From Vicugna vicugna (Eukaryota), in the NCBI GenBank assembly GCA_013265495.1, contig MU057584.1, forward strand, positions 722,608-786,607: a stretch of 64,000 nt of DNA, read 5' to 3'. A model generated the notes under the pieces. It made no database searches. It was given only the letters and a program-made list of their open reading frames with translations, and was not told the DNA's origin. Positions 21,541 through 30,500 of the stretch are shown in pieces. Position numbers and translations under genes: made by a program. The number at the start of each line of letters is the position of its first letter. Position 1 is the stretch's first letter.

Positions 21541-21554
21541 GTCACCATGGCAAC
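21541..21554. promoter_or_regulatory. RFX X-box GTCACCATGGCAAC (EXOC3L2 putative intron 1)
   Basis: Matches the X-box consensus GTHNYY-AT-RRNAAC. Confidence 0.55.
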
Positions 21555-22743
21555 CCTTGTCTGGCACCCCCACGGCTGTGGGAAATCGATACCAGCCCCC
21601 TATACACACACACTATTCACACCCTGATTTCTCAGTCTTCATCTTCCAGACTGGTTTCCACATGCCTTATCCCCAAAATGGCTCCATCATCCCCTAGAGC
21701 CAGCTCCATCATTGCCCCCCCCAAAACTCTACCTTTTCACTCAAAACAGGGGGCTCCAATTTCCCTCCAATTGAAGTTAACATCACCCAAACTAGATTTT
21801 TTTCACCAAAACTAAGTCTGACACTCCCCCTCTGGCTCTCACATCCACCCCCAGACTGGATCCAATATGCCCAAACCATTTCCAACATCCCCAGACCTAG
21901 CTGCAACATTTTCCCAAAACTGTCCCCGACGCCTTTCCCCTTCCTGGCTCCAACACCCACCTCTGCAAACTGACTCCAACATCCTGCCCCATCCAGCCCC
22001 CTCGTCTGCCTTCCAGTGCCCAGCCCCTGACTCACTTCCGAGGCATCCCTCAAGCCCCCAGCCTCCCAGCTCTTGCAGGATGTCTTGGCCACCAGAGCTT
22101 CCCTCTTTGGGCTCCTCCTCCTTTTCCTTGCTGCCAGCCTTTCCCCAAAGTTCCAAACCCTGTGCAGACGGGCCAACCTGTTTGCAGAAATCATCACCTC
22201 CAGTCCCCAGTGTCCGGATAAGGGAACTGCCTTTACAAATTGTGTATCCAAGCCAGACCTCTACAACCCCAATCCAGACCTTGCCCCCAAACAATTCTGT
22301 CACCAGCCCAGCCTGTTTCAAGCTGATTCACATCTTCACTCCCAACCTCGTCCCCATCTCTGTCTCCTGCTCCATCTCCATTCCAACCCTCGTCCCCACT
22401 CCCACTTCCAAGACCTCATCTCTCGGGGATGGAGCAAAGCGCTCATCCCTCTCTGGCCTCAGCCTTCCTACCTGAGCTCAGAGAGCATCCGACCCAATGA
22501 CACTTCTCGCTTGTCCCTTGGTGTTGCAGGCTCTCCACGGCACCCTCAAAGCCTGGACCCTCAGAGACCCCAAGGTCTTCCCTGCACCCTCCTCCCGCTC
22601 CTTTCTCCTCTCACTGGCACCCTCCCAAGGTCAGGCCCTAGATTCTCTTTTAGTCCCCAGCCTCTCCTGGCTTCAGGGCACATATTTCTCCCAAATTCTG
22701 GTCCAGCCGCAAATTCAGAGGGCCCTTCCTCCCGCACACTCAC

Positions 22744-22910
22744 CTTCTTGTCAATGTCCCTCTGTCCCTGCTGCTCTCCTGTCCTGAGGCTACTTCAGCC
22801 GGGACTGCTGAGAGCTTGGATCTGAGGAGGGGGGGTAAGAGGAGGTCAATTTCCTGTCAGGAAACCCCTCCCTCTCTGGGGCCAGGGGCGGGAAGGACTT
22901 GTTATCTGTC
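22744..22910 (-). promoter_or_regulatory. EXOC3L2: Probable EXOC3L2 non-coding exon 1 and proximal promoter
   Basis: Strong donor AAG|GTGAGT at 22744/22743. Upstream lie an ETS palindrome TTTCCTG-T-CAGGAAA (22850-22864), a GC box (22885-22892) and a GATA site TTATCT (22902-22907). The TSS is not determinable from sequence. Confidence 0.55.
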
Positions 22911-26815: not shown

Positions 26816-26849
26816 GGGTGTCTACTCTCCGGTGAGAACATAGTCCATA

Positions 26850-27500
26850 TCAACGCGCCCAGACCTGCCTCCGCCCCCAGAGCCCGTGGCCCGTCCGGGC
26901 CTGCGCCTTTAAGTGCCGGCGGCAGGGGGCGGGGTCTTGGCGGCCCCGCCCTGGCCGCCCCTCCCCCTGACGTCCCTTCCTCCCCGGCCCCTCCCCCGCC
27001 TCCCTCCGCCGCCGCCCGGGCCGGCTCCGCGCCCACCCTCGGCGTCCCCCTCCCTCCCTCGCCCTGCCCCCTCTCCCACGGCGCGAACCCGGGTGTCCAC
27101 AGCGCCCAGCTTTTGAGCTCGCGTCCCCAGGCCGGCGGGGGGGGAGGGGAAGAGAGGGGACCCCGGACCCCCGCTCCCCCCCCGACCCGGCCGCCCAGTC
27201 CCCCGAGACCTGGAGAAAATGTCTTCACGGACGGCGCTGGCCCCGGGCAACGATCGGAACTCGGACACGGTGAGTGGGGCCCGGCCCCTTGGGGAGCCCC
27301 GGCTGGGTCTGGCAGCCAAACCCCTCGCCCGGCTGTGCCCCTCGCCCTGCGAGCCCCTACCCTCATTCCCCTAGCCCAGCCCAGCTGGCCACCTCCCGAC
27401 CCCTCGCCCGGACTTCCAGGCCTCTCGACCCTCCCCCACTCCTCAGCCCAGCCCGACCCCTGGGGGCGCCCCTCTTGCGGGACCCCTCTCTTGTCCCTCT
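26850..27500 (+). promoter_or_regulatory. MARK4: MARK4 CpG-island promoter and 5'UTR
   Basis: Dense CpG, multiple GC boxes (GGGGCGGGG, CCCGCCC), surrounds the ATG at 27219. Confidence 0.85.
27219..27269 (+). CDS. MARK4: MARK4 exon 1 coding part ([17 protein letters not shown])
   Basis: AAAATGT start context; donor ACG|GTGAGT. Confidence 0.95.
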
Positions 27501-30500
27501 GCAGACTGCTTCCGCTCGGGTCTCTTCCCTCCAGGAAGCCCCCTCCCCTGTCTTCCAGGAGCCCCTCCCTTCTCCCGTGTTCTTAAGCCCCTTCCCCTCC
27601 AGGCCTCCCGCATCCGACAACTGGCCCCCTCCCGGATTTGCCGGGCTCCTGACCCCAAGGCCCAGCCACAGCCGTCTCCCAGGAAGGCCTGGCCCAGTCC
27701 TGCCTCTGGGTTTGGCCTTCCCTGTTTGGATCTGGGTGCCGGGCTCCCCAGGATGCCCCCTCCTCTCATTCCCAGTCTTCCGCTCCTTGGCTCCCTCAGG
27801 ATCCTCCTGGCTCCTGTGGGCACCCCCTCACAGGAAGCAGGTTCCACCTTTCCTGGGCTCAGGGCCCTTTCTAGCTTGTTCAAGGTCTCTCCACTCCCAG
27901 GCCTGGTACCCATCCTCCAAGCAAACCTGTCCCTGGATTCCTAGCACCTCGTGTCCCTCCAGTTCCCCACCGCCAGACCCTCTCTGGTCTCTTCCTCTCC
28001 CAGGAAGCCTTGGCCTCCAACTTCCAGGCCCCCAGCTCAGTCTCGGATTTCTAGGCCCTGAACCAGTCTGACTCCAGGCCTCATCCTCCCTGTCTCAACT
28101 CCTCCACTTCAGGCAAGCCCCCTCCCCAATTCCCCAACCCTTTCCCACCCCCCCCAGGCCAGGCCCCTCCTCACAGGACACTACCTCATCCCTCAGAGCT
28201 CCAGGGCCCCATCCCTTCTGCTGCCCCAGGGCCTCCCTCTTGCCAGGGGTCTGGCCTCCCAGGGACGCTCCCTCCTCAGTTTCAGAGTCTTTCCCCAGCT
28301 CACAAGGCCTGGCCCCAGATCTTTCTTCCAGAAGAGTCCTGGACTTGAAGCCTCTGGTCTTGCCCTGCCTCTAAGCCCTTTTCTCTTGGGATCTGTCAGA
28401 TGGAAGCCTTCTCCCCAAGTTTCTAGGCCTCTTGACCCCCGCCAGGATCAGCCTTTATTCCTTTGAGCTGCCCCTTGTCCGGGAAGCTCCTTCCCCAGGA
28501 TTTCAGGCCCCTGGACCTTTCTTTGGTCACAAGGACTGCTCCTAGAAACCCCCTTCTTTGACTTCTAGGAGCTCCCCCAAGACCTAGGCCCCTGGCTCAG
28601 GTATCCTTGGCCCCTGACTTCCACTGCCCCATGGCTTGGAACCTTCTCACTATTCCTGGACCCCCTGTCCTTATACCACATCCCAGAACAATCTTATGGA
28701 GACACCCACCTCCATTTCCCTGACTTCTGATTACTCTCAGTGCTTCTAAAGACCCTCTCACCAAACAGCGCCAGACTCCTTCCCAGCTGGGATCTTTGTG
28801 CCTTTCCCCCTAGGCCTTCTGCCAGGTCTCTGTCAACCCTCAGCCACCCTCACCCCAGATTCCCACCAGAGAGACTTATCTCTGCCCCTTCATCTTGCAG
28901 GACTCTCCCTCACAGAGTTCCTCCACCACCATCACCATCACTGCCACCACCCATCACACTATAGGTCAGACTCGGATTTGGAGTCTCTGATGAGAGACCC
29001 CCACCCACCCCCCAGTAGCTACGGGAAGTGACAGGAAGCCCACAGGCCTGGGTTCAAGTGCTGGCTCTGCCTGCCCCTTTGCCCTGTGACCTCAGACTAC
29101 TGGTTCTTGCCTTCTGAGCCTCAGTTTCCTGCCCTGGAAAATGGGGATGATCACTTGGGTCCCTCAGAGGTTTTCTTGAAATGATACGGGTGAAGCCAGA
29201 CACGCAGGACGCGTTCCACACATGTTTGCTGCTATTGTGACTGTGGGTGTGAGTCAGACAGCTGGGGCTTCTCAACCCAAGGTTGTCATTAGTTGTTGCA
29301 GGAGCTTGCAGTCCACTCCCTGCTCTGAGCCTCAGTTTCTTTACCTCTAAATGGGGTTGATGGAAGCACCTCCCTATTAGGGATGTTTTAAGGAGCCAAA
29401 GAGATTATGTGAGTAAGATGCAGAGCTAGGCACATTGTATATGCTATTATTATTTTGATTATTCAGATAAGCATCAGTTCAAATCTCATTTCTGTCCCTC
29501 CCTAGCTGTGTGACCTCGGGCAAGTGACCTCACCTCTCTGAGCCTCAGTTTCCTCAGCTGTAAAATGGGGCTTTTACAAGCACTTCTTCCTCCTCTTGCT
29601 GTTCAGATTTGTGCATCGTGGGGATTTGGGGACCCCTAATTCTCCTCTCCTTTCTCCCAACTCTATAGTCTGTTAAGACCTGCTTGTCAGTGCTGGCAGA
29701 GTCATCTCTCTCCCTCTGGAGTCCGAGGTCACAGCCCCTTCCCCTGCCACCTGGTTACCATGGCAACAGCAATGTGGGGTCATGCTCCCCCACACCAAGT
29801 TCCAGGTCCCCCACCTCCCATCCTCTCTGGAGGTTCCCTAGCAACAGGCCCAGTGTTGGGGCGCCAGCCGGTCGGGAGGGAGCTGGGCCAGCTGGTGGTG
29901 CCGGCCAATTTTAGCTCCTGCCCCAACCCCTGGGGGCTTTGTCCCCCACTGCCCCACCTGCCCCTTGCAGGGGTCCCTCAGCCACACTGCCTTTGGTGGG
30001 GTGCCAGCCCAGCCCCCATTGGCTCCCCTGGTGCCACCTGATGGGGATTGTGCTCTGAGCCCTTATCTGGGTGGGAATCCGAGGCCTTGTCTGCCAGGAT
30101 CTCCAGCCCCCTCTCCCACTCCCTTGGGAGGAAACCTGGGGTTGTGAGCCGGTGATGCAGGAAAAAGCTGGGGGCTCAAGAGTCAGCAGACCTGGATTCG
30201 GATCCTGGGAACTCTGCTCTGTCTGCCCTGTGACCTTGGGCAAGGTACTTACCCTGCCTCCAACTTGGGGTCCCCGGGTGGAGAATGCAGATGGTAATGG
30301 AGCCCGCATCTGAGGCCAGGGTGAGGGCACGGGAGGCAGTGGGCGTGTGGTTAGGGCTCCAGCAGTGGCGGCTGTCTTTCTGCCCCTCGTGGGGAGCGTT
30401 ACCTTTCCACTTCTCACTAATGAGCTGTGTGACCTTGGCAAGGCCCCTCCTCGCTCCAGACCTCAGTTTCTCTTCTGGAATATGAGGATGCAGGTGCCAC

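Follow-up and report, generated by a model that had tools for sequence, protein, structure and literature searches.

Two X-box motifs, candidate binding sites of RFX transcription factors, lie at the neighbouring genes EXOC3L2 and MARK4 in a 64-kb stretch of the Vicugna vicugna genome (C452:722608-786607). The term window refers to this whole stretch. X-box 2 is certainly located inside MARK4 intron 1, and X-box 1 falls probably in the first intron of EXOC3L2. They are read as two independent, single-copy, candidate high-affinity RFX-type binding sites, each close to the 5' end of its host gene, a reading given about even chances. Direct observation covers the motifs with their positions, the single-copy state of both, and the excess of their class across the genome. 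A first-pass annotation of this DNA had proposed a ciliary co-regulation module; joint control of EXOC3L2 and MARK4 by the two X-boxes is not supported. The two sites are:

X-box 1, GTCACCATGGCAAC: 21541-21554, no strand assigned, 2.2 kb before the EXOC3L2 ATG, ~1.19 kb past the putative donor of exon 1
X-box 2, GTTACCATGGCAAC: 29754-29767, no strand assigned, 2,484 bp into MARK4 intron 1

Motif match and genome-wide excess

Both 14-mers were found where twin X-boxes had been annotated. The window was scanned with GTNRCCNNRGYAAC. This pattern is the X-box consensus. X-box 1 and X-box 2 are its only sites, each with 0 mismatches, and by sequence both are X-boxes, i.e. imperfect palindromes of the form GTNRCC(N)RGYAAC. 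The two sites yield three strand matches, because X-box 2 fits the pattern on both strands, against 0.22 expected; three matches were reached in 0 of 100 shuffles. An 11-mer common to both, ACCATGGCAAC, is present at exactly two places in the window (0.02 expected), a count reached in 0 of 100 dinucleotide shuffles. With one mismatch to GTNRCCNNRGYAAC allowed, the window holds 15 strand matches (5.5 expected), none of them within the core promoter of EXOC3L2 or MARK4. The 300-bp flanks of X-box 1 and X-box 2 are each single copy in the vicugna assembly. Both sites are surrounded by CpG-poor intronic DNA, and no FOX, CRE or SIX1 motif was found within 250 bp of either.

The assembly to which the window belongs (2.03 Gb) was searched for the class of both sites, GTYACCATGGCAAC, which gave 297 matches. 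The same half-sites gave 25 matches in a direct-repeat arrangement and 14 in an everted arrangement, placing the class 12- to 21-fold above its rearranged controls. Three last-base variants reached 162 matches combined, or 54 each, so that GTYACCATGGCAAC is 5.5-fold higher. The reversed GTYACCATGGCAAC pattern had 5 matches, a control that is biased low because the reversed pattern contains CpG. For the perfect palindrome GTTGCCATGGCAAC, 138 sites were counted against 7.6 expected under uniform sequence. The broad consensus GTNRCCNNRGYAAC has 6,738 strand matches genome-wide, compared with 2,932 for its reversed pattern, and averages 13 matches per 14-mer, compared with ~148 for each of the 14-mers seen here. 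X-box 1 and X-box 2 belong to the most over-represented X-box tier in the genome. The excess over the controls indicates that most such motifs are not due to chance, which makes genuine RFX binding plausible. Most exact copies appear to have been kept by selection, presumably for RFX binding, in which case each site is fairly likely a priori to be genuine. That RFX motifs are strongly conserved among mammals is established knowledge.

A repeat-family origin of the excess was considered and rejected. All-against-all BLAST of 41 flanks, from the two window sites and 39 other genomic sites, returned only motif-centred matches of 17-37 nt. Over -60 to +60 nt around the motif no column exceeded 0.35 bit of information, and the nearest 12 columns on each side held at most 0.13 bit. 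The window flanks are single copy, and no common repeat or flank consensus emerged from the sample. CpG-rich surroundings were present at six of the 39 other sites; the remaining 33 lie outside CpG-rich DNA, like X-box 1 and X-box 2. Duplication of one window site from the other was likewise rejected, the two flanks having no mutual BLAST match at E <=1e-3. An 18-nt similarity upstream of X-box 2 is common to the genomic locus L039 and does not extend further. One repeat lies close to X-box 2:

Dispersed repeat: 29504-29586, no strand assigned, ~170 bp upstream of X-box 2, its first ~66 nt recurring 18 times elsewhere in the window

This repeat is presumably MIR-like. Its similarity to the other copies stops short of X-box 2, and a MIR-like repeat is touched by one of the 39 other flanks. 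At least one exact genomic X-box (L027) is apparently derived from a MIR-like repeat, which accounts for a minor share of the excess (1/39 sampled). The repeat core presumably representing MIR holds a near X-box, GTGACCTTGG(G)CAAG, in the window at 30429-30442. Among the genomic matches, contig C4662 (21.6 kb) duplicates the start of C1013 with 99.7-100% identity over the sampled 314 bp, and the sites at C3396:5436221 and C3396:5445664, 9.4 kb apart, are 100% identical over 314 bp. These copies are assembly or segmental duplications and slightly inflate the motif counts.

At the genome frequency of the class, 0.0094 sites are expected per 64-kb window, and the probability of two or more is 4.4e-5. 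Across the genome, chance alone should produce ~1.4 windows with at least two sites and 0.36 pairs no more than 8.2 kb apart; the pairing by itself is therefore suggestive without being decisive. Strong X-boxes do cluster. Among ~147 listed sites, seven pairs lie within 30 kb, compared with 0.91 expected; the C4662/C1013 and C3396 pairs were removed from this count as duplications, and the check for duplication covered the pairs other than the three that involve perfect palindromes. At G000:C1013:22121 (L009), an X-box-like GTTGCCAGGTAAC precedes the exact 14-mer by 6 nt, forming a tandem double X-box, and another exact site is located 17.6 kb away on C1013. A third exact copy of GTCACCATGGCAAC was found on the minus strand at G000:C452:810707-810720 (L001:5000-5013), 24 kb past the window end. 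It was rejected as a third linked site, since it falls inside an ERCC2/XPD coding exon encoding HPVTMATF; protein constraint explains this copy, and it is therefore not counted.

These figures bear on a serious rival explanation, in which both motifs are chance matches without function and their pairing beside two cilia-linked genes is a post-hoc coincidence. The ~0.36 pairs and ~1.4 multi-site windows expected per genome are consistent with it, as are the selection of the motif only after it had been seen, the CpG-poor intronic setting lacking FOX, CRE and SIX1 motifs nearby, and the absence of both genes from the mouse RFX datasets treated below. The 12- to 21-fold excess of the 14-mer class over rearranged half-sites and the 5.5-fold excess over last-base variants speak against it. 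With such an excess and no repeat origin, only ~5-20% of copies are expected to be neutral. Chance is accordingly regarded as unlikely, yet as an explanation to be taken seriously.

Position of the sites in the locus

The order of genes across the window is EXOC3L2 (minus strand), MARK4 (plus strand) and CKM (minus strand). The 5' part of MARK4 was modelled as follows:

MARK4 exon 1, coding part: 27220-27270, plus strand, ATG at 27220 and GTGAGT donor after 27270, as read from the sequence
MARK4 exon 2: 31759-31965, ends approximate, plus strand, from the sequence

A downstream kinase exon has MARK4 as its best PDB match (5es1/8xfl, E 2.8e-50). According to the CpG profile, a GC-rich promoter is located just upstream of exon 1. 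A long low-complexity tract rich in GTCTCT/TCTCTG (26400-26800) abuts this promoter on its upstream side. With the donor after 27270 and exon 2 at ~31.76-31.97 kb, X-box 2 lies in MARK4 intron 1. Its distance of 2,484 bp from the donor agrees with the ~2.5 kb given in the first-pass annotation.

EXOC3L2 was recognised on the minus strand by Pfam Sec6 matches at 15009-16106 and 7255-7713. A tblastn comparison with orthologues of ~800 aa resolved the gene into ten exon blocks between 19341 and 3971. Two exons define the 5' end of the model:

EXOC3L2 first coding exon: 18823-19341, extending to the acceptor at 19357, minus strand, ATG at 19341, from tblastn with orthologues
Putative non-coding EXOC3L2 exon 1: 22745-22850, 5' end undefined, minus strand, consensus donor AAG/GTGAGT at ~22745, from sequence only

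The first coding exon is 99.4% identical to a Camelus ferus isoform (tblastn). A polypyrimidine/AG splice acceptor ~17 nt upstream of the ATG implies at least one non-coding exon further upstream. A plausible but putative candidate for this exon lies at ~22745, and X-box 1 would then probably be placed in the first EXOC3L2 intron, ~1.19 kb from the exon-1 donor. The earlier placement ~1.2 kb into intron 1 thus holds as far as the existence of an upstream exon and a fitting donor at ~22745 are concerned, while the identity of exon 1 stays putative.

Just upstream of the putative exon 1 (22850-22960, minus strand), AGATAA and CAGGAAAT motifs occur in a region with neither a CpG island nor an X-box. 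They are presumably GATA-like and ETS-like, respectively, a combination taken here as typical of an endothelial-type promoter. Such motifs agree with the use of Exoc3l2 as a blood-vessel marker. A strong CpG island (15001-16000; GC 0.70, CpG observed/expected 0.86) covers the internal EXOC3L2 coding exon 15011-15643. It is broken by a 48-N assembly gap (15795-15842) just upstream of the exon. The island may be an internal promoter of a shorter EXOC3L2 isoform.

The two genes are divergent and carry the sites in their 5' introns. In this respect the annotated head-to-head arrangement was correct; it does not extend to a shared promoter. The presumed starts are ~4 kb apart, with the putative EXOC3L2 exon 1 at ~22.75-22.85 kb and the MARK4 exon-1 promoter at ~27.0-27.2 kb. 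In a bidirectional promoter, divergent starts lie within ~1 kb and use one common promoter region. EXOC3L2 and MARK4 do not show this arrangement and are therefore divergent neighbours without a shared bidirectional promoter. Creatine kinase M exons follow on the minus strand at 61-63.4 kb.

RFX data and competing readings

In the preferred reading, each X-box would serve as a promoter-proximal intronic element, in the 5' intron of EXOC3L2 and in MARK4 intron 1, respectively. An RFX dimer (RFX1/2/3 or another member) would bind each imperfect palindrome in RFX-expressing tissues and modulate host-gene transcription. This reading does not require the two sites to form a coordinated module specific to cilia. 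RFX occupancy, any transcriptional effect and the gene served by each site are inferred.

Published data provide a frame for this reading. In human neurons, the motif is present in 86% of 4,240 RFX3 peaks, and those located no more than 3 kb from a start site show an enrichment for ciliary and synaptic genes (PMC11888390). X-box 2 is located within the 3 kb limit used for 'promoter peaks' in that study. In ependymal cells, fewer than a third of the RFX1/2/3 peaks lie in promoters (PMC7498320). For validated human X-boxes, most positions fall between -500 and +500 relative to the start, and the permissive window extends from -2300 to +1400 (PMC5838959). X-box 1 would lie ~+1.2 to +1.3 kb from the EXOC3L2 start if the putative exon 1 is real.

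Several points weigh against two functional sites. X-box 2, at ~+2.5 to +2.7 kb from the MARK4 start, falls outside the permissive window of -2300 to +1400. The EXOC3L2 start site to which the position of X-box 1 refers is itself putative. The motif excess is a class-level argument built on a single neighbour class and two rearranged controls, and it does not prove that any one site is functional; as the copy in the ERCC2 exon demonstrates, an exact X-box 14-mer may be present for a different reason. Mark4 and Exoc3l2 have 0 occurrences in the accessible part of a supplement combining RFX1/2/3 chromatin immunoprecipitation sequencing (ChIP-seq) and Rfx2/Rfx3 knockouts in mouse ependymal cells (PMC7498320). 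Both genes also have 0 occurrences in the tables of RFX2 ChIP and expression from mouse testis, including Rfx2-/- (PMC4498915).

The ependymal supplement does contain the control genes Dync2li1 (19 occurrences), Mark3 (13) and Exoc3 (8); Klc3 has 0 occurrences in the same accessible part. Its promoter-peak tables span -1000 to +500 only, and intronic RFX peaks could therefore be missed (PMC7498320). A comparison in Rfx2/Rfx3 knockouts had been suggested for both genes. Mark4 and Exoc3l2 are absent from the accessible ependymal differential-expression table, and neither shows up with the genes whose expression differs by more than 1.5-fold in Rfx2-/- or Rfx3-/- ependymal cells of the mouse (PMC7498320). 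Table look-up, in mouse only, thus revealed no dependence of the host genes on RFX. MARK4 and EXOC3L2 are not listed in PMC10900739 either, which is weak evidence because the tables contain neuron time-course clusters. Full-text literature searches pairing each gene with RFX returned, in the text accessible to them, no description of RFX control of EXOC3L2 or MARK4.

In the proposed ciliary co-regulation, RFX2/RFX3 would co-activate the divergent EXOC3L2 and MARK4 in ciliated cells. In its favour, each gene has a top-tier X-box in its 5' intron, the two being separated by 8.2 kb, and strong X-boxes tend to cluster in the genome. The cilia links named in the first-pass annotation were confirmed in published articles. 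MARK4 acts in early ciliogenesis (PMC4205846, PMC4378380), and EXOC3L2 is a candidate gene in ciliopathy-like disease of the Meckel-Gruber-like and Dandy-Walker types (PMC5126998, PMC10449956). Against co-activation, neither gene is present in the mouse tables of Rfx2-/- and Rfx3-/- ependymal cells, RFX1/2/3-bound promoters or RFX2 in testis. Moreover, in mouse hypothalamus the clusters marked by Exoc3l2 are those of blood vessels and not of ependymal cells. Presumed GATA- and ETS-like motifs, not an X-box, precede the putative EXOC3L2 exon 1, the starts are ~4 kb apart, and each site is inside its own gene. Co-activation is considered improbable. A related claim is likewise considered improbable: that both X-boxes are conserved in mammals and bound by RFX2/RFX3, so that they tie MARK4 and EXOC3L2 into one RFX-driven unit and give EXOC3L2 a regulatory link to cilia which is missing from its protein data.

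In a further reading, RFX or some other factor occupies the sites, with no measurable role for EXOC3L2 or MARK4. It comprises non-productive binding, the ubiquitous RFX1, the stress-responsive RFX7, and enhancers for a different neighbour. Thousands of RFX peaks occur per cell type, and many bound genes are unchanged on RFX loss (PMC7498320). Both genes are missing from the RFX-dependent lists in the mouse tables, as this reading would predict. The position of each site, nearest to the 5' end of its host gene, argues against it, and it is regarded as rather unlikely, though somewhat less so than co-activation in ciliated cells.

Two metagenome scans were uninformative on conservation. With 19 nt around X-box 2, 30 loci were retrieved, whose similarity to the window comprised only 19-31 nt at the motif. 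A protein-guided scan based on the first coding exon of EXOC3L2 yielded 594 pattern matches, none of them a relative. Several related metagenome contigs (L054, L067) carry two to three X-box-like matches ~150 bp apart, an apparent tandem or dispersed repeat. These contigs are presumably eukaryotic and are unrelated to the window.

Comparison with known X-boxes and significance

The name of the motif derives from the MHC (major histocompatibility complex) class II X-box, which is bound by the RFX5 complex and recognised by the RFX DNA-binding domain. The class II element is a half-site X-box within an S-X-Y module. In contrast, no S-X-Y module was seen at the EXOC3L2 and MARK4 sites. With the promoter X-boxes of direct RFX targets (DYNC2LI1; DYX1C1/DCDC2, PMC5024701), the sites share the same imperfect palindrome of two GTNRCC-type half-sites, and EXOC3L2 and MARK4 are likewise cilia-linked. 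However, the candidate sites are located farther out, at ~+1.2 kb (relative to the putative exon 1) and ~+2.5 kb. X-box 1 and X-box 2 would fall among the non-promoter, i.e. intronic or intergenic, RFX peaks detected by ChIP-seq or CUT&RUN. Divergent cilia gene pairs with one X-box in a short bidirectional promoter are also arranged head-to-head with X-box motifs nearby. The promoters of EXOC3L2 and MARK4 are separate, ~4 kb apart, and each gene has its own intronic site in place of a shared one.

X-box 1 and X-box 2 are plausible new RFX target sites, which would extend a well-known system modestly rather than reveal a new mechanism. Exact palindromic X-boxes were found to be 10- to 20-fold over-represented, non-repeat and clustered, which provides a prior for judging other X-box findings. 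Binding and conservation of the two sites, if true, would add MARK4 and EXOC3L2 to the RFX regulon. EXOC3L2 would then gain regulatory support as a cilia-related disease gene, and the EXOC3L2/MARK4 locus in the APOE region would contain two non-coding candidate functional positions.

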